Shown one piece after another: positions 14,424-63,986 of a DNA stretch of 64,000 bases (position 1 is the first letter of the stretch; each line of letters opens with the position of its first letter). The position numbers and the translations under genes are program-made. Below the pieces are notes generated by a model. It was not told the DNA's origin. It was given only the letters and a program-made list of their open reading frames with translations, and ran no database searches. The stretch comes from Candidatus Omnitrophota bacterium (GTDB taxonomy: Bacteria; Omnitrophota; Gorgyraeia; Duberdicusellales; 4484-171), in NCBI GenBank assembly GCA_016935525.1, contig JAFGQU010000004.1:1314-65313 (forward strand), read 5' to 3'.

Positions 14424-15177
14424 CTGGCAACCTACGCGGTTGCCAGGTAATTACTCATCATCAACATCAAAAATAAGACTTTTTATTTTTGCTAACTCCC
14501 GCTGATAAGAAATCCTGTCTGCAACGAAATCCCGATATATTTTGGGACACATCTGAAATAAATCGCTGTATTCACAAATTTTTTCCGTATCCTTATCAAA
14601 AGCGATATATTCCCTATACGAAGATGGTTCCCATTCACAAAGATTCTCTACAAGACAAGCTGTCGTCGGATTGAGATGGATATACCGGGTTAAATGCAAC
14701 AATTGTTCATCGTTTTCTACTAAAACTTTTTTGAAACGACTTTCCCATAGTGGCCCTTTTCTATTATGTTTTGTATTAAAATAACGCGTATAGCTGTTAA
14801 GAATATTATTCATAAAATTTGATATTCCGTTATCTGCCACTTGTTTCAGTATTAAATGGATATGAGTAGGCATAAAACAATAAGCAATAATCTTTACTAT
14901 TTTTTTGTGAGCATCAAGTATCTCTTTGTTTCTTTCCGTATCATTTGCCGCGCGATTGAACTTGCTAAAACTAATAGCTCTATGCTGATATCTATAATAT
15001 CCTATCATTCTCCTCATACGCAGGTAATCACACTCATTATGGAATATTTCGAATTTTGCAATAGTGCGTGAATATACATGATATATTTGCCCTGTCGTTA
15101 ACATTTCAACTTTGTTCGTACGCATTGATTGTGTCCTCTACTCACCTCTGGCAACCGCGTAGGTTGCCAGAGGTGAG
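14422..15177 (-). mobile_element. IS200-like/REP-associated tyrosine transposase (RAYT) element bounded by inverted REP-like hairpins.
   Basis: Hairpin 14422..14448 is acctggcaacc-tacgc-ggttgccaggt. Hairpin 15141..15177 is ctcacctctggcaacc-gcgta-ggttgccagaggtgag. They are mutual reverse complements and immediately flank the Y1 transposase gene. Confidence 0.65.
14451..15125 (-). CDS. HUH-Y1 transposase of the IS200-like family (RAYT-like, 224 aa).
   Basis: The HuH motif is HIHLIL. The catalytic Tyr region is RYIHLNP. YHVYSR and GPLWESRF are typical of PF01797. Confidence 0.7.
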   Translation of the reverse strand: MRTNKVEMLTTGQIYHVYSRTIAKFEIFHNECDYLRMRRMIGYYRYQHRAISFSKFNRAANDTERNKEILDAHKKIVKIIAYCFMPTHIHLILKQVADNGISNFMNNILNSYTRYFNTKHNRKGPLWESRFKKVLVENDEQLLHLTRYIHLNPTTACLVENLCEWEPSSYREYIAFDKDTEKICEYSDLFQMCPKIYRDFVADRISYQRELAKIKSLIFDVDDE

Positions 15178-15212
15178 TCAAAATATTTTCTCTCGTCTTT
15201 CTTTCTTTTGCA

Positions 15213-17512: not shown

Positions 17513-17611
17513 AGTAATATCTTTTTTAAAATAGTAACACTATAAAGATTTGTGTCAAGGAGAATCTCTCCCGTCATACGTACTGCGCCGTGAGTATCGC
17601 ATATGTGATGC

Positions 17612-17704
17612 GGTCTTTGGTTTATCGTCTCTGGTCTTTAGTCTTTGGTATATAGTTTTTCTCTTGTTTTTCCACTAAATACTGTCGACCATAGACTAAC
17701 GACT
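17612..17704. repeat. Cluster of TAGTCTNTGGT-family short repeats: three tandem direct copies plus one inverted copy. Includes a 20-mer identical to 51093..51112.
   Basis: Direct copies gtctttggt (17613..17621), gtctctggt (17628..17636) and tagtctttggt (17640..17650). Inverted copy accatagacta (17690..17700). The segment tcgaccatagactaacgact (17685..17704) is the exact reverse complement of 51093..51112. Confidence 0.6.
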
Positions 17705-17706
17705 TT

Positions 17707-19674
17707 TTATTCGTACCGTAACGCTTCGATAGGGTTCAGTTCCGAAGCTTTCTTCGCCGGCCAAAGTCCAAACCCGATACCTACCGTGATAGAAAACGTC
17801 GTCGCGAGCACGATACTGAACGGCGTGACCCGTGTCGCCCAGCCGGCAGAAATCGCCAGGACCACCGCCATCGCCGACCCTAACGCGATCCCCATCAGCC
17901 CCCCGCTGAACGTCATCACTACCGCTTCGATCAAAAACTGGGTCATAATGTCGCCTTTACGGGCGCCGAGCGCTTTACGCAGGCCGATCTCTCGCGTACG
18001 TTCGGTCACCGATACCAGCATGATATTCATTATTCCGACGCCGCCGACCAGAAGCGAGATCGCCGCGATGCAACCTAACAGCATACTCATAGTCTGGGTA
18101 GTACTGGAAAGCATATCCTGGATCTCACTCATGTCCCTGATATGAAAAGAATCCGTATCGTCTTTGTTTAGCCGGTGCCGTTTGATGATCAGGTTCTCTA
18201 TTGCCTGGGTCGCCTGTTCCATAAGATTCTCGTTACTTACTTCTATAAAGATCGTATCAAGATAATCTTTTCCCAACACGCGGTACATCGCGGTCGTAAC
18301 CGGTATATACGCCACGTCATCCTGATCACGGAACCCGCCCGAACCCTTAGGCGGGGCGATACCGATGACTTTGAAATTAATACGGTTTATCTTTATGGTC
18401 TCACCGACCGGGTTTTTATCGCCGAACAGGTTCTTTACTACCGTCATCCCCAATACCGTGACTTTCGCGCGTTCTTCGATCTCATCGGGAGTGAACCACT
18501 GGCCGACGGCAGGAACGGTCGCCCGCATCTGGCCGTAATCATATCCTACGCCCTCAAGGCTTGTGTTCCAATTCGCGTTCTCATATACGGTCTGCGCGGA
18601 CCCGCCAACCCGGCCGCTTGCTTTTGCAACCAGCGGGCTGAGCGCGCGGATCGCGGACACATCGTTAAACGTAAACCGCTCGACCGAACCGACACCCATC
18701 GCTACTCCGCGTATCCTGGCCGAACCGCCGCGGACCATAAGCAGGTTGGAACCCAGGCTTTTTAACTGTTCCCGGAGCGATTCTTTTGCGCCTTCGCCTA
18801 ACGCAAGCATGGCGATGACCGCCCCGACTCCGAACAGTATTCCCATCATCGAAAGGATCGAACGGGTCTTATTGGAAAGGATCGCGTGAAATGACTGGCG
18901 AAGATGTTCGAAAAATTCGATAGTACCCCAGGCCGAATGGGTCTGCCCGGTGACTTCATCAAGAGATATTCCTTTATCTTTTTGAGAAATACTCCCCGGA
19001 GAAGATTTCTTTTCGTCGGAAAGGACCTTCCCGTCACGCATCGTGATGACCCGGGATGCGTATTGGGCGATCTCGCGGTCATGAGTGACTACGATTATGG
19101 TCTTACCCTGGCCATTCAGTTGTTTGAGAATACCCATGATCTCTTTACCGCTTTTACTGTCAAGGTTCCCGGTAGGTTCGTCGGCAAAAATGATCGTCGG
19201 ATCGTTTACTAAAGCGCGGGCAATCGCGACCCGCTGCTGCTGGCCGCCGGAAAGTTCGTTGGGCCGGTGCAGAGCCCGGTCGTTAAGCCCGACTTCTGCC
19301 AACCGTTTATCCGCCTCATGAAAAATATTCTTTTTCCCGGCATAGATAAGCGGTAACGCGACATTTTCCCGCGCGGTCACCCGGCGCAGGAGATGAAACT
19401 GCTGGAACACAAATCCCGCCAGATGGTTTCTTAACGCGGCAAGGTCACCGTCGGAAAACCGGGTAAGATCTTTACCGAATATTTTATAGATACCACCTGC
19501 ATCCGGACGGTCCAGGAACCCCAGGATATGCATAAGCGTGGATTTACCTGAACCTGAAGGCCCCATGATCACGATAAATTCGCCCGGCGAAATGGCAAGC
19601 GAAACATCGTGTAACGCTTTAAGCGCGACTTTACCGGTATAGTATGTTTTGGATATATTCTGTAATTCAATCAT
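17707..19674 (-). CDS. macB: MacB-type ABC transporter (fused ATPase plus FtsX-like permease).
   Basis: Walker [10 protein letters not shown], the ABC signature [15 protein letters not shown] and Walker [13 protein letters not shown]. The C-terminal region has four TM helices with a large periplasmic loop. Confidence 0.85.
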
Positions 19675-22193: not shown

Positions 22194-22431
22194 CTTTTAC
22201 CTCCTCGTTTAAAAATAGCGTACATCCGATAAATATGAAAAGTATGATTTATCATATAAAACATACTCCTGTTTTCTCTTTTTGTCAACGAAACAGATTT
22301 ACATCTCGACAGAGACTCGCCGCTTTCGGCCTTCCCAATTCCTAAAAAAACCCTATAATGAGATAATCACGTAACGCGAAACGCGTCACGCGTAACGCGC
22401 CGAAAAGAAAATCAGAACGAAATAAATTATT

Positions 22432-22449
22432 GAAATACAATTGTATTTC
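22432..22449. promoter_or_regulatory. Perfect 18-bp palindrome GAAATACAATTGTATTTC, a putative operator in the abrB-like/ygiQ divergent intergenic region.
   Basis: Exact dyad symmetry lying 76 bp upstream of the ygiQ start. Confidence 0.4.
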
Positions 22450-22463
22450 ACGAAGCAGAGCTG

Positions 22464-22496
22464 AGTATATTTCGCGAAACGAAGTTGAGCATATTT
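22464..22496 (+). promoter_or_regulatory. 33-nt motif M (gtatatttcgcgaaacgaagttgagcatatttc) with an internal TTTCGCGAAA palindrome. Copies also at 52908..52940 (minus) and 53019..53051 (plus).
   Basis: Near-identical copies (1 to 3 mismatches) are found upstream, in the same orientation, of ygiQ (28 bp from its start) and of the CxxCxxCC gene at 52476..52853 (54 bp from its start). Confidence 0.45.
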
Positions 22497-22524
22497 CTAT
22501 TGCATTTCAATTCGTATTGAGAAT

Positions 22525-32950: not shown

Positions 32951-33185
32951 GTTTCTTTAGTCGTTGTTATCGGGTGACGGGTATCGGGTTTCGGGTACCG
33001 GTGAAAATTCCAATTTTTTTCTACACCCTATACCCGGCCCCCTATGGCATGACCAGAGATTATAGACTCGTCCCCAAGTATCAGGCTATTATATCAAAAA
33101 GACACCGTTTGGTAAGGATTCTTCCGGAAACTATTTTTGCGGCATTCATAGGTATGAACAGTCAACGGTTCGGGGGCGGCCCTAT

Positions 33186-46431: not shown

Positions 46432-47637
46432 ATGAAAAATATCGGTATTATTACCTCGGGCGGGGATTGCGGCGGATTGAACGCGGTCATCAAAGGAGCC
46501 GCCCGAATGGCGCATACACAAGGGCTTTCCTGTTTTGTCATTCCCAACGGATATGCCGGATTATATAATCTTCTTGAATTTGACAAACTGGTCGAACTTA
46601 CTCCCGAACGGATAGATAGTGTCGGAGCGAACATGGCCGGTTCGGAAGCCGGACATTCCCGGGTAAAAGTAAAGAAGATTGAAGACCCGCAAAAATATGA
46701 ACGGATAAAACAGGGCCTTAAAAAATTCAATATCGACGCTTTGATCATCTCCGGCGGTGACGATACCGGTTCGGTAATCGTCGATCTCACTTCTCAAGGG
46801 ATCAAATGCATTCATGCTCCTAAAACCATGGATCTCGACCTTCAGACCTATTCGGTCGGCGGAGACTCCACGATCAACCGGATTGCCACGTTCGCCGAAG
46901 ACTTGAAGACTACCGGAAGGACGCATAACCGGATGATCGTGGTCGAAGTATTCGGAAGATACGCCGGACATACCGCGTTCCGCGGCGGGATCGCCGCCGA
47001 TGCCGACGCGATCCTTATTCCGGAAATACCGATCGATTTCGATATCCTCTACCACCATGCCAAAAAACGTTATTTCCGCCGGATCGAGCAATCCGACGTC
47101 CATGCCGGAACATATCTGATCGTCGTTGCCGAAGGATTAAAGAACGCCGACGGAACCGAACTGTACGATGAGTCGGCCGGGATCGACGCGTTTGGACATA
47201 AAAAGCTCGCCGGAGCCGGAAAATATGTATGCCAGGAACTTTCCAAAAGGTTTAAAGAAGATCCCGAAATAGAAGGGTTGATGAAAAAGACAAAAATGTT
47301 CGTTCCCGGGGTATATAAAATACCCGAGGTCCGTTCGGTCCAGCCGGGACATCTGGTCCGTTCCGGGCACGCTTCCGCCTATGACGTGAATTTCGGGATC
47401 CAGGCCGGCGCGGCAGCGGTACTTTTGCTACTCAACAATATCAACGGAGTGACCGTTTCCAACGTCGAAGGGAAAAAAATCAAATACGTCGCAACGGCTG
47501 AGGCGATCACCCAACGCCATGTGGACCTTGCCGACGTGGTCCTCTATGAAAATATGGGCGTCTGTTTCGGACGGAAAAAAACAAAACTCGATGTGTCTTT
47601 TGAAGAACTTAAAGGACATATTCAGAGATATATGTAA
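46432..47637 (+). CDS. pfp: Phosphofructokinase with the PPi-type signature (GGDDT).
   Basis: Start placed at MKNIGIITSGGDCGGLNAV, with AAGGAG upstream. The track's 46225 start runs through the intergenic palindromes. ISGGDDTGS has Asp at the Gly104-equivalent position, as in PPi-dependent PFKs. Confidence 0.75.
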   Translation: MKNIGIITSGGDCGGLNAVIKGAARMAHTQGLSCFVIPNGYAGLYNLLEFDKLVELTPERIDSVGANMAGSEAGHSRVKVKKIEDPQKYERIKQGLKKFNIDALIISGGDDTGSVIVDLTSQGIKCIHAPKTMDLDLQTYSVGGDSTINRIATFAEDLKTTGRTHNRMIVVEVFGRYAGHTAFRGGIAADADAILIPEIPIDFDILYHHAKKRYFRRIEQSDVHAGTYLIVVAEGLKNADGTELYDESAGIDAFGHKKLAGAGKYVCQELSKRFKEDPEIEGLMKKTKMFVPGVYKIPEVRSVQPGHLVRSGHASAYDVNFGIQAGAAAVLLLLNNINGVTVSNVEGKKIKYVATAEAITQRHVDLADVVLYENMGVCFGRKKTKLDVSFEELKGHIQRYM

Positions 47638-47688
47638 AACACGTCACACGTCACAGGTCACACGACACACGATTTTCAACTTTTATTC

Positions 47689-50653: not shown

Positions 50654-50983
50654 TCATCTCATACCTTTAGCTACCAATAAAGCAATCATCGCCACCGGGA
50701 AAAACAGGTCGAAATTTACCACGAAATCAGTATAATAATCCGGTTTGTCGGCGAAATTTTTCATTGTATCTATATGGATAATCTCGTGACATCCCCGAAT
50801 AAAAGCGGCCGAAGCGAAAATGACTGCAGTTACACCGATAAAAATATCTCCCCGCCATAAAAATAACATTCCCACTACACCAAAAATGCCGTTCACATAT
50901 ACGATGGGATTCATTACCACCTCCGTGTATCGCGTCAGCGTAAAGAGCGCCAACATTTTTAAATCACTGTAACCTTTCCTCAA
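50654..50983 (-). CDS. Small membrane protein (DUF1634-like partner of TauE).
   Basis: Three TM helices. Sits immediately upstream of the TauE gene. Confidence 0.4.
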   Translation of the reverse strand: MRKGYSDLKMLALFTLTRYTEVVMNPIVYVNGIFGVVGMLFLWRGDIFIGVTAVIFASAAFIRGCHEIIHIDTMKNFADKPDYYTDFVVNFDLFFPVAMIALLVAKGMR

Positions 50984-51030
50984 TCGCCGTAATCAAGTGC
51001 TGTGGTATACGGCAACAGCACAAAAAAAAA

Positions 51031-51078
51031 GAGGCTAAAAAGCTCTGGAAATCAGAACTCTTTAGCCTCCGGTTGTCC
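51031..51078 (-). terminator. Rho-independent terminator on the minus strand.
   Basis: 9-bp stem gaggctaaa / tttagcctc with a 21-nt loop, followed on the minus strand by a run of nine T. Confidence 0.6.
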
Positions 51079-51314
51079 GGTCAGCCATTTTTAGTCGTTA
51101 GTCTATGGTCGATAGTCTCTAGTTCACGTGTTAGCCCGTGCTCGCGTTACTCCGCTGAAGTGAACGATGAAACGAGGGACGTTCGCTCATTTTATTCACT
51201 GAGACGACCGCTCACATCGTTCGCTAGGACGCATCATTCGTCCTTCGTCCGAATGACCAAAGGGAATGGTCGTCCTTCGTGTTTTCACCGTATAAGAACG
51301 GGTCTAACGGAAAA
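51079..51314 (-). ncRNA. Candidate structured RNA, 3'UTR or attenuator region between the DUF2292 gene and the terminator. It carries a 20-mer identical to one at 17685..17704.
   Basis: Multiple local helices (gttcac..gtgaac, gaacg..cgttc, ggacg..cgtcc, gacca..tggtc). A direct repeat tcgtccttcgt occurs twice. No credible ORF. Confidence 0.3.
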
Positions 51315-51503
51315 TTACCGTACTCTCAACTTGTTTATTTTATCGATCTGTACGATCTTCCCGTCCTGGATATGGATCTGGACCGATCCGTAACGTATCT
51401 CTTCCAATGCCCGGGCGATATCGCACAAGATACTGTTCTGCATATGGACCTCTTTTCCGGAACCATTTTTTTTATGCAATTCTTTCGACATCCGCATAGA
51501 CAC
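51315..51503 (-). CDS. DUF2292/YezD-family small protein.
   Basis: YGSVQIHIQDGKIVQIDK matches the YezD signature. Confidence 0.5.
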   Translation of the reverse strand: MSMRMSKELHKKNGSGKEVHMQNSILCDIARALEEIRYGSVQIHIQDGKIVQIDKINKLRVR

Positions 51504-51504
51504 G

Positions 51505-51906
51505 TTACACTAAATCGGAAAGTCTCAGTTTTTCGAGGCGGTCCGAGACATAATCCCGTATTTCTTTTAAGACCCGCAATATCTTTTTTTCCTTTTCCAA
51601 AGGCGTATGCGCGTAAAAATATTTACTTACCGACTCACTCGGGGCAAGCGCACCGTCCATCAACCTGGCGATCTCGGCCACACTTATCCTGCCGGCGGAT
51701 TTGGAAAGTCTATACCCGCCGTGAGCGCCGCGTTTAGTCTTTACATAGCGGGCCTGTTTAAGGATAAGGAACAGCTGTTCCAGGTATTTCTTGGAAATAT
51801 CGTACTCGGCGCAGATATCCTCGATCTTTATATACTCGTCTTTCTCGTGACGGGCGATATAGATCAACGCCAGCAATAAATATTCGCTTTTGGTGGTAAG
51901 CCTCAT
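51505..51906 (-). CDS. Rrf2-family transcriptional regulator.
   Basis: MRLTTKSEYLLLALIYIA N-terminal HTH. Start chosen at the Rrf2-typical Met, since the track extends 12 codons further. Confidence 0.65.
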   Translation of the reverse strand: MRLTTKSEYLLLALIYIARHEKDEYIKIEDICAEYDISKKYLEQLFLILKQARYVKTKRGAHGGYRLSKSAGRISVAEIARLMDGALAPSESVSKYFYAHTPLEKEKKILRVLKEIRDYVSDRLEKLRLSDLV

Positions 51907-52062
51907 TTGTCTACTTTGTTTATAGAGATTATAGACTAACATGTCCGGCTTGTCAAATTATTTTTCAGAACTCTCTGATTACGGTGATTTCTCTGGGCAA
52001 ATATTGCCCAATACCCCTTCCCTCTTTCGGGAGAAGGGATGGAAGATCCGGCGGGATTTTTA

Positions 52063-52853: not shown

Positions 52854-52907
52854 GGCGGTTACTTTATGTACCTGCTATCTGAGGCGGGTCGAGCCGGAAA
52901 TACAGTG

Positions 52908-53051
52908 GAAATATGCTCAACTCCGTTTCGCGAAATATACCCCTACGGGGTGAAAGAAGTTCGCTTCGTTCACGAAATTGCGGGAAATAGATTGTAACAA
53001 TGTATTCCCATATATTTCTATATCTTTCGCGAGCGTAAGCGAGCATATTTC
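52908..53051. repeat. Inverted pair of motif-M copies (52908..52940 on the minus strand, 53019..53051 on the plus strand) separated by about 78 bp.
   Basis: Each copy is 30/33 or more identical to 22464..22496. The internal palindrome TTTCGCGAAA is conserved in the minus-strand copy. Confidence 0.45.
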
Positions 53052-53064
53052 AATTCGTTAAGTT

Positions 53065-63923: not shown

Positions 63924-63986
63924 TTAGTCTCTGGTAGAAAACATAGCTACTATCGACTAGAGACCAGAGACTAGAGACTCTATTTT
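63924..63986 (+). terminator. Stem-loop built from an inverted pair of TAGTCTCTGGT repeats downstream of the yjfB-like gene. Possible terminator or REP-like element.
   Basis: tagtctctggt (63925..63935) pairs with accagagacta (63963..63973). A further copy is gactagagactc (63970..63981), followed by tattttat. Confidence 0.4.

Follow-up and report, generated by a model that had tools for sequence, protein, structure and literature searches.

The stretch analysed here, 64,000 nucleotides of a Candidatus Omnitrophota bacterium (NCBI GenBank assembly GCA_016935525.1, contig JAFGQU010000004.1, positions 1,314 to 65,313 of the forward strand; hereafter the window), carries in its spacers a family of short repeats that share the 11-mer TAGTCTNTGGT. 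A sequence-only reading of the window had likened these repeats to repetitive extragenic palindromic (REP) sequences or bacterial interspersed mosaic elements (BIMEs). The loci in question lie between the genes for a MacB-type ABC transporter and nikR (A and A'), next to a Na+/H+ exchanger-CBS gene (a mosaic array and B2), downstream of an Rrf2 operon (C), at the promoter of the Rrf2 (CymR-like) regulator gene itself (D; gene at 51906-51505, 133 aa, start at 51906) and between convergent genes (E and E'):

17612-17653, + strand: array A, six units GGTCTTT GGTTTAT CGTCTCT GGTCTTT AGTCTTT GGTATAT (Tandem Repeats Finder (TRF), period 14/7, 76% matches; period-7 tract)
17677-17704, - strand: array A', four units AGTCGTT AGTCTAT GGTCGAC AGTATTT (sequence read in 7-nt register)
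17633-17704, either strand: hairpin A/A' (RNA fold, inverted repeats)
32958-32999, + strand: mosaic array, one TAGTCGT unit in register with the array TGTTATC GGGTGAC GGGTATC GGGTTTC GGGTACC (TRF, tract scan)
33048-33068, - strand: locus B2, three weak units AGTCTAT AATCTCT GGTCATG, without inverted partner (sequence)
51030-51070, - strand: strong intrinsic terminator, 18-bp stem and U run, directly downstream of the 90-nt block
51064-51153, - strand: 90-nt block holding array C, 100% identical to positions 6660-6749 of L511, a contig of a related species
51093-51127, + strand: array C, five units AGTCGTT AGTCTAT GGTCGAT AGTCTCT AGTTCAC, without inverted partner or inverted repeat
51924-51940, - strand: locus D, overlapping the -10 box of the Rrf2 promoter (promoter scan, homology to relatives)
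63926-63939, + strand: array E, 5' arm, AGTCTCT GGTAGAA (sequence in 7-nt register)
63945-63979, - strand: array E', five units AGTCTCT AGTCTCT GGTCTCT AGTCGAT AGTAGCT (TRF, inverted repeats)

Exact matches to TAGTCTNTGGT occur five times in the 64-kb window (17639+, 17688-, 51099+, 63925+, 63963-), where 0.05 would be expected and none of 100 shuffles reached five. All five fall into the spacers, which account for ~13% of the window, and the restriction to intergenic DNA described in the sequence-only reading holds in the window count. Its description of three loci was likewise accurate: GTCTNTGGT is present as three direct copies at 17613, 17627 and 17641 together with an inverted copy at 17688, the locus at 51093-51125 is a repeat locus and corresponds to the five-unit array C, and the inverted pair at 63925-63981 contains a stem of 11 nt with 100% complementarity (63925-63935 / 63963-63973). 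The two-unit pattern TRGTCNNTRGTC, searched with at most one mismatch, gives 25 matches versus 7 expected, of which 16 lie inside the five loci and the remaining 9 represent chance level, and the pattern RGTCNNNRGTC gives 12 versus 4.7, with 9 of them within the loci.

When the sequence is written in a 7-nt register, the loci split into units, and the repeating entity is the heptamer RGTC(T/G)NT (GTCTNTR in the other rotation), arranged head-to-tail. TRF assigns the motif loci a period of 7 or 14 and describes arrays of 2-6 units with 74-88% matches. In a sliding autocorrelation, an identity of 0.7 is reached only by period 7 and its multiple 14, and a fixed criterion returns four tracts of period 7 and five of period 14, whereas no other period between 4 and 13 yields more than one; all nine period-7/14 tracts are intergenic, versus ~0.05 in shuffles. 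Altogether, TRF detects 7-nt arrays with four different units in the window. GGGTNNC, a unit unrelated to the motif, makes up the array at 32965-32999, and two further arrays are likewise unrelated:

22366-22401, + strand: unrelated heptamer array, CGTAACG, ~4.3 copies (TRF, tract scan)
47635-47674, + strand: unrelated heptamer array, ACACGTC, ~4.7 copies, filling a 51-nt spacer between two + strand genes

Since the loci resolve into head-to-tail arrays of 7 nt and the same scans find unrelated heptamer arrays, TAGTCTNTGGT covers one and a half of the heptanucleotide units, and the source genome has a general tendency to form period-7 arrays between genes. The suggestion of a second small-repeat family is correct in that the family is genuine, dispersed and strictly intergenic, but it is one of several heptamer families in the window. 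Approximately 85 kb of DNA from relatives (NikR or Rrf2 74-84% identical) contain essentially no period-7 tracts, so that the repeat richness is lineage-specific. Scans for tRNAs and with Rfam (gathering threshold for the whole window, E-value mode for 50900-51600) returned nothing relevant. Besides, the arrays at 32965-32999 and 47635-47674 reach within 8-15 nt of start codons, and the genes next to them lack an obvious Shine-Dalgarno sequence, comparable to the TAACTGA repeats of Beggiatoaceae. Repeats of another type also occur in spacers, namely the 24-nt tandem repeat TATTTCACGAAACAAAGCTGAGCA with 2.2 copies (22444-22497), whose 17-mer GTATATTTCGCGAAACG is found again in inverted orientation at 52924 (52900-53060).

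At two of the loci the arrays face each other. The + strand of array A carries the pyrimidine-rich orientation, and A' begins 2 nt past the stop codon (17707-17709) of the MacB-type gene; array E starts at the same distance past a called 62-aa gene (stop codon 63921-63923; AGGAGG ribosome site). Hairpin A/A', placed between the MacB stop codon and the predicted nikR promoter (17558-17531, promoter scan), is predicted to fold with -20.0 kcal/mol on the - strand (z -4.15) and -23.8 kcal/mol on the + strand (z -3.07). For C, B2 and D, which have no inverted partner, the predicted folds are not more stable than those of shuffles (z +0.7 to +0.9 and -0.8), and the earlier proposal that inverted copies form stem-loops applies to A and E only. 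An intrinsic-terminator reading of A and E, with a G+C-rich stem and a U run right behind it, was rejected, as no terminator was called at either locus. At E, UAUUUUAU follows 10 nt past the stem, and the terminator near C is a hairpin of its own.

The nikR loci of relatives, where the neighbours of nikR differ, have no arrays, and no close MacB ortholog is on record for checking the conservation of array A. The 5' region of nikR, ACTATTTTAAAAAAGNTAWTACY-ATG, is kept in three species with differing upstream genes (window 17513-17545; L156 690-717; L159 9960-10000), and GTAACAC-like motifs that precede both nikR and the nickel-transport genes behind it may be NikR operators. Array A' also shares sequence with array C: 17685-17704 is the exact reverse complement of 51093-51112, and over the whole segment 25 of 26 nt are identical in inverted orientation. 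Only five repeat diagonals in the window reach 17 nt, and this common 20-mer is among them.

Array C lies within the 90-nt block that is unchanged in L511, whereas the coding DNA of this contig is 73-80% identical to the window and the second-longest exact match between both in 12 kb spans 48 nt. Over 41 nt, the adjacent terminator stem differs from that of L511 at 9 positions, with compensatory pairs that keep the stem. In more distant relatives the array-bearing 66 nt of the block are absent, and the DUF2292 stop codon is followed directly by a conserved small hairpin and the terminator. Array C is placed 25 nt upstream of this strong terminator; in the predicted fold of the transcribed strand, which carries the purine-rich version, it stays unpaired. 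From this sequence comparison we infer that array C is part of a block under strong constraint and that selection acts on C. The block, for which Rfam gave no match, is flanked by the DUF2292 gene and the conserved terminator and precedes a TauE sulfite-exporter gene; it could be an element of the 3' untranslated region (UTR), an attenuator or a small RNA. Next to it, at 51160-51300, ~150 nt of hairpin-rich DNA (e.g. GGACGACCATTCCCTTTGGTCATTCGGACGAAGGACGAATGATGCGTCC) are missing from the equivalent spacer of L511 and look like an insertion.

The two other loci of the sequence-only reading, 32955-33070 and 51926-51940, belong to the family only in part or not at all. At the former, the TAGTCGT unit and the 14-mer AGAGATTATAGACT are indeed present, but the membership of B2 in the heptamer family is doubtful. 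The mosaic array at 32958-32999 stops 8 nt from the ATG (32950, - strand) of the Na+/H+ exchanger-CBS gene, which has no obvious Shine-Dalgarno sequence. AGAGATTATAGACT is found at 33055 and at 51924, i.e. in B2 and D; this sharing by itself is not significant, given 49 such repeat diagonals in the window and 8-19 pairs in shuffles. At 51926-51940, AGAGATTATAGACT is again present (from 51924), but it is part of a conserved Rrf2 promoter and 5'UTR and not a repeat insertion. The promoter matches the sigma-70-type consensus at 12 of 12 positions (TTGACA at 51956-51951, a spacer of 17 nt, TATAAT at 51933-51928) and overlaps AGAGATTATAGACT. Relatives with 88-96% protein identity keep TAGTCTAYAATYYCTATAAACAAAGTAGACAA-ATG, whereas the promoter spacer and the upstream DNA diverge. 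In relatives with 78-84% identity, a perfect 14-bp palindrome, TTGTCTATAGACAA, stands at the homologous position between promoter and start codon (L514 2084-2097, L516 9960-9973, L517 9968-9981). Among 518 loci, no copy of TTGTCTATAGACAA was seen other than those upstream of Rrf2 genes, and in the window lineage the palindrome has decayed; it is probably the autoregulatory operator of the Rrf2 gene. Because the palindrome is confined to Rrf2 upstream regions, locus D is homologous promoter DNA and, judging from the relatives, ancestral promoter/operator DNA rather than a family member by descent.

The gene order of the window differs from that of its closest sampled relatives (L156, L511), with breakpoints in the array-bearing spacers 17513-17706, 32951-33185 and 51940-52062. 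In L156, for example, nikR stands beside an LMWPc gene, and in L511 the Na+/H+ exchanger comes after DUF2490. These breakpoints could be a coincidence or reflect repeat-associated rearrangement.

The same unit is also found far outside the window. A search for (RGTCTYT)x3 in bacterial contigs, with one genome per species, gave at least 119 stretches, and the following counts on placement, strand and flanks refer to the 119 loci among the matches listed. They come from Acidobacteriota, Bacteroidota, Planctomycetota, Chloroflexota, Vibrionaceae, Desulfosarcina, Nostocaceae and an Omnitrophota metagenome-assembled genome. The arrays are concentrated in non-coding DNA (94 of 133 arrays in the 13% that is non-coding), lie more often between convergent than between divergent genes (23 versus 11) and form long perfect arrays of up to 12 units in other genomes. 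They often adjoin arrays of other units: the 8-kb flanks contain 159 more period-7 arrays with 130 different units, compared with 38 arrays of period 6 and 57 of period 8. A degenerate 24-nt consensus of A', C and E' was recovered in 25 metagenome stretches with unrelated flanks and a G+C content of 29-63%. The occurrence of the 24-mer ACTATCGACTATAGACTAACGACT in unrelated metagenome contigs was considered as a conserved element and rejected, since it is explained by the search pattern and an A/T preference at the free positions. In the same way we discarded a general design of heptamer arrays with five conserved and two adjacent variable positions (substitution concentration 0.547 versus 0.570 in a uniform model); the adjacency excess of variable positions was only apparent and confounded by tract edges.

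Direct traces of length change come from metagenome contigs with conserved flanks, as L503 and L506 differ by a 14-nt insertion inside the array and L495 and L496 by one of 7 nt; these indels indicate slippage, whose signature they bear. Array C is invariant in L511, with no change by a 7-nt step. Two Logan contigs from run SRR13394437 match stretches of the window without a difference, and one of them reaches 5 kb beyond it; the second copies of window loci in L001 and L518 are identical as well. As a control for abundance, four composition-matched scrambled heptamers were counted in viral contigs, where the unit gave 35 stretches and the scrambles 59, 68, 80 and at least 120; intergenic arrays alone numbered 21 for the unit versus 43, 51, 34 and 26. 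A mirror control partly overlaps the original unit (GGTCTCT). The unit is thus not favoured over composition-matched heptamers.

Rules of orientation and spacing had been proposed as a check on the family, and for single arrays the check was negative, since the 119 listed loci show no strand rule relative to genes. At gene 5' ends the purine-rich strand is the sense strand in 44 cases and the pyrimidine-rich strand in 30, at 3' ends the numbers are 55 and 46, and in the vicinity of start codons the transcribed strand is the purine-rich one in 16 versus 8 cases. The spacing of inverted pairs varies as well (27, 38 and 4-147 nt), and ~80% of the arrays have no inverted partner. The pairs that do exist within 150 nt nevertheless share a polarity: the pyrimidine-rich arm precedes the purine-rich arm in ~18 of 19 independent loci across phyla (L037-L155, L485-L509 and window loci A and E). 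Among the matches listed, this holds for 11 of 12 genome loci under strict and 13 of 15 under relaxed matching, and further for five of five metagenome loci and for both A and E. As such a pair reads alike on both strands, its polarity is compatible with the missing gene-strand rule. Control units in viral contigs almost never pair, a comparison that confounds the unit with the type of host. The polarity is the order required by a model in which the pyrimidine arm is acted on while still single-stranded, ahead of hairpin closure; a fold-back origin during replication could be an alternative source of it. We know of no published description of such a polarity rule. In metagenome contigs of low G+C content, an inverted pair of TAGTC-type arrays lies ~35 nt upstream of groEL (L485 580-660/L490) and groES (L502 3250-3300), with a conserved A/T-rich leader, a placement that resembles an RNA thermometer.

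Taken together, we consider it probable that the motif represents a lineage-specific family of heptanucleotide simple-sequence repeats (SSRs) with slippage-born arrays, of which A and E serve as elements at gene 3' ends. For the arrays as such, slippage is the most likely origin, and for the paired copies the most likely role is that of a REP-like hairpin at gene 3' ends. The 7-nt period, the confinement to spacers, the presence of several unrelated heptamers side by side and, in arrays of the unit from other organisms, length steps of 7 and 14 nt are direct observations. The proposed role at 3' ends is supported by the starts of A' and E 2 nt past stop codons, by the stability of hairpin A, by the position of C ahead of a strong terminator and inside the unchanged block, and by the excess of arrays between convergent genes elsewhere. 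According to this model, arrays would arise and change length by slipped-strand mispairing, would persist nowhere but in spacers, as 7 is not divisible by 3, and would then decay by point mutation. In this Omnitrophota genome some of them would have been co-opted as elements at gene 3' ends: where two arrays face each other, as at A and E, a transcript of either strand could form a hairpin that starts 2 nt past the stop codon with the pyrimidine-rich arm first. Such a hairpin might act in a REP-like manner by shielding the mRNA end, by pausing or terminating transcription, or by stalling the terminating ribosome. The sporadic, lineage-specific distribution of heptanucleotide repeats in the literature (PMC4679880, PMC4692102) fits the lack of period-7 tracts in the relatives.

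Several points weigh against this interpretation. With only 2-6 imperfect units each, the window arrays do not qualify as strict long SSRs, which are longer than chance and consist of near-perfect copies. No length differences were seen at the window loci, as the second copies in L001 and L518 are identical. Neither the perfect conservation of block C nor the identity of A' and C over 20-25 nt is predicted by neutral slippage. Hairpin E is no stabler than shuffles (z ~ -1.3), no canonical intrinsic terminator was called at hairpins A or E, and all functional steps are ones that we infer.

The likeliest of the alternatives, although in itself improbable, is neutral microsatellite debris that is functionless everywhere, with block C as a product of recent transfer or gene conversion between co-occurring relatives. 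It would explain why the spacers contain many unrelated heptamer units, why the unit is no commoner than composition-matched controls, why single arrays show no strand preference (44 versus 30 at 5' ends, 55 versus 46 at 3' ends) and why arrays are missing at the nikR loci of relatives. It accommodates less well the 90 nt that stay unchanged beside a terminator with 9 of 41 nt changed and genes of 73-80% identity, the ~18:1 polarity of the inverted pairs and the two hairpins that start exactly 2 nt past stop codons.

Rather improbable, to our estimate, is that the arrays are sites for a protein that binds single-stranded nucleic acids with a 7-nt footprint, such as a cold-shock-domain (CSD) protein, an OB-fold protein (e.g. 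Rho) or a HutP-like protein. This protein would load onto the pyrimidine-rich arm during transcription and thereby control the hairpin or an adjacent terminator. In vitro, CspB from Bacillus subtilis binds best to 5'-GTCTTTG/T-3', where it prefers C at position 3 and T at positions 2, 4 and 6 and is loosest at position 5 (PMC1904285). GTCT(T/C)T(G/A) agrees with this optimum, GTCTTTG/A is the commonest unit, and position 5 is likewise the most variable in the window arrays. CspB has also been crystallised with GUCUUUA (PMC7825780), and the XAG-N4 repeats bound by HutP flank a terminator with the same 7-nt period (PMC2425495). In line with this, the pyrimidine-rich arm stands 5' in inverted pairs, exactly the order that co-transcriptional loading needs, and array C is unpaired directly upstream of a terminator. 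On the other hand, the unit is no commoner than scrambled controls, single arrays show no preference for sense or antisense and close to start codons it is the purine-rich strand that is transcribed (16 versus 8), as it is at C. Furthermore, the other heptamer units of the source genome are unlike the CspB site, the window contains no csp gene, and CSD proteins are low in sequence selectivity (PMC7825780). The match between unit and CspB site may be a coincidence, with a chance of ~0.3% for a random heptamer class, judged post hoc.

Two further alternatives appear very unlikely. The arrays could be operators of a double-strand DNA-binding regulator, e.g. the neighbouring Rrf2 repressor, whose own promoter contains TAGTCTA...TAGAC. 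D overlaps the Rrf2 -10 box, the half-site GTCTA of the relatives' palindrome TTGTCTATAGACAA resembles the unit, and C lies downstream of the Rrf2 operon; however, the palindrome is limited to Rrf2 upstream regions and decayed in the window, the arrays consist of units in direct orientation, phased at 7 bp, the spacing of inverted pairs is variable (27, 38, 4-147 nt), and A, C and E stand downstream of genes and not in promoters. Equally doubtful are miniature transposable elements with TAGTCTNTGGT arms as terminal inverted repeats. The termini of A and E are inverted with a fixed polarity, as such repeats would show, but the interiors of A and E are unrelated and do not align, no target duplications or flanking direct repeats were seen at the loci, loop lengths range from 4 to 147 nt in other genomes, and ~80% of the arrays are unpaired. 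Based on the lack of homology between the two interiors and of visible target duplications, this reading was rejected.

Least likely of all is a REP/BIME-like nature, with palindromic units that the RAYT of the gene at 14451-15125 would mobilise: although the family is extragenic and dispersed, in part forms inverted pairs close to gene 3' ends and shares the window with a Y1 transposase (RAYT-like) gene, its units are direct 7-nt repeats and not self-folding palindromes, C, B2 and D lack self-complementarity, the inverted repeats that flank the RAYT gene (14424-14446 / 15148-15170) are unrelated in sequence, and the unit is found in many phyla as ordinary tandem arrays. The comparison with REP or BIME elements in the sequence-only reading thus has to be given up, while its separation of the family from the RAYT-flanking hairpins stands, since these form a separate repeat diagonal of unrelated sequence. 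The Y1-transposase (RAYT/IS200-like) gene at 14451-15125 itself is bracketed by 23-nt inverted repeats at 14424-14446 and 15148-15170, and a further hairpin at 15140-15178 beside it is also unrelated in sequence to the heptamer family.

On its own, the repeat family adds one more unit, and Omnitrophota, to the bacteria rich in intergenic heptanucleotide repeats. The polarity of inverted arrays and the 90-nt block without substitutions between species whose genes differ by 20-27% could make the function of such repeats testable. Should both reflect a single-strand binder whose footprint is 7 nt, heptamer repeats, instead of being slippage debris, would form a general device of post-transcriptional control. 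With little confidence, one may go further and regard inverted GTCTNTR-type arrays as a widespread polar RNA switch, in which a CSD/OB-fold protein loads onto the pyrimidine arm, a run of optimal 7-nt sites that is always transcribed first, and thus decides on the formation of the hairpin or, as at block C, of an adjacent terminator. Such a switch, if true, would couple expression at gene ends or downstream (e.g. of groES/groEL) to temperature or to the Csp level.

As a kind, heptanucleotide tandem repeats are already known, and the unit RGTC(T/G)NT and the phylum Omnitrophota are the additions. In the literature searched, we found no description of RGTC(T/G)NT as a bacterial repeat. For the heptanucleotide long SSRs of prokaryotes, a scattered phylogenetic distribution has been described and polymerase slippage proposed (Mrazek et al. 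2007, as cited in PMC4679880 and PMC4692102). As far as these accounts go, the window arrays resemble long SSRs and the cyanobacterial short tandemly repeated repetitive sequences in their head-to-tail 7-nt units, intergenic position, sporadic occurrence, several units per genome and probable origin by slippage, but are short (2-6 units) and degenerate. Three tandem heptanucleotides are known in Calothrix, and (GGGANTN)n in Xanthomonas mostly has four units and some inverted pairs (PMC4692102). The GGGAATC/(GGGANTN)n repeats of Xanthomonas and GGGGAYT of Nostoc share with the window arrays the combination of conserved and variable positions, ~4 units, the intergenic location and some stem-loop pairs; in contrast to RGTC(T/G)NT, which cannot do so, these G-rich units are proposed to form G-quadruplexes (PMC4692102).

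The TAACTGA repeats of Beggiatoaceae are comparable in their 2-6 direct heptamer copies per set and their high density per genome, and cold-shock, S1 and CsrA proteins have been proposed to bind them (PMC4679880). These sets sit just upstream of start codons, where they replace the Shine-Dalgarno sequence, whereas A, C and E lie downstream of genes (PMC4679880); only the mosaic array at 32958-32999 resembles this placement. In Geobacter metallireducens, GGACCGG (x4) and MTYCTGA (x5) likewise form 4-5 tandem heptamers at tens of sites, with some pairs on opposite strands, but their units differ and they are annotated as putative regulatory sites without experimental function (PMC2700814). Enterobacterial REP/BIME elements are similar to the window arrays in their extragenic location at gene 3' ends, their hairpin pairs and the proposed mode of a stop-adjacent 3' hairpin; the units of the window differ in that they are not palindromic, are built from 7-nt tandem repeats and have no link to the RAYT hairpins. 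HutP with its XAG-N4 sites and CspB with its heptamer recognise single-stranded nucleic acid with a 7-nt phase (PMC2425495, PMC1904285), but HutP is a Bacillus protein, and the orientation data do not support a general strand-specific role. In the Haemophilus influenzae hmw (ATCTTTC)n repeat, a transcribed, pyrimidine-rich xTCTTTx array, variable by slippage, forms the 5' arm of a long RNA hairpin (PMC12721329). There, at least 11 perfect copies lie within a 5'UTR, opposite a G-rich arm that is not itself repetitive, and phase variation is brought about through cleavage of the hairpin by RNase III (PMC12721329). The arrays of the window, by contrast, are short and placed behind stop codons.

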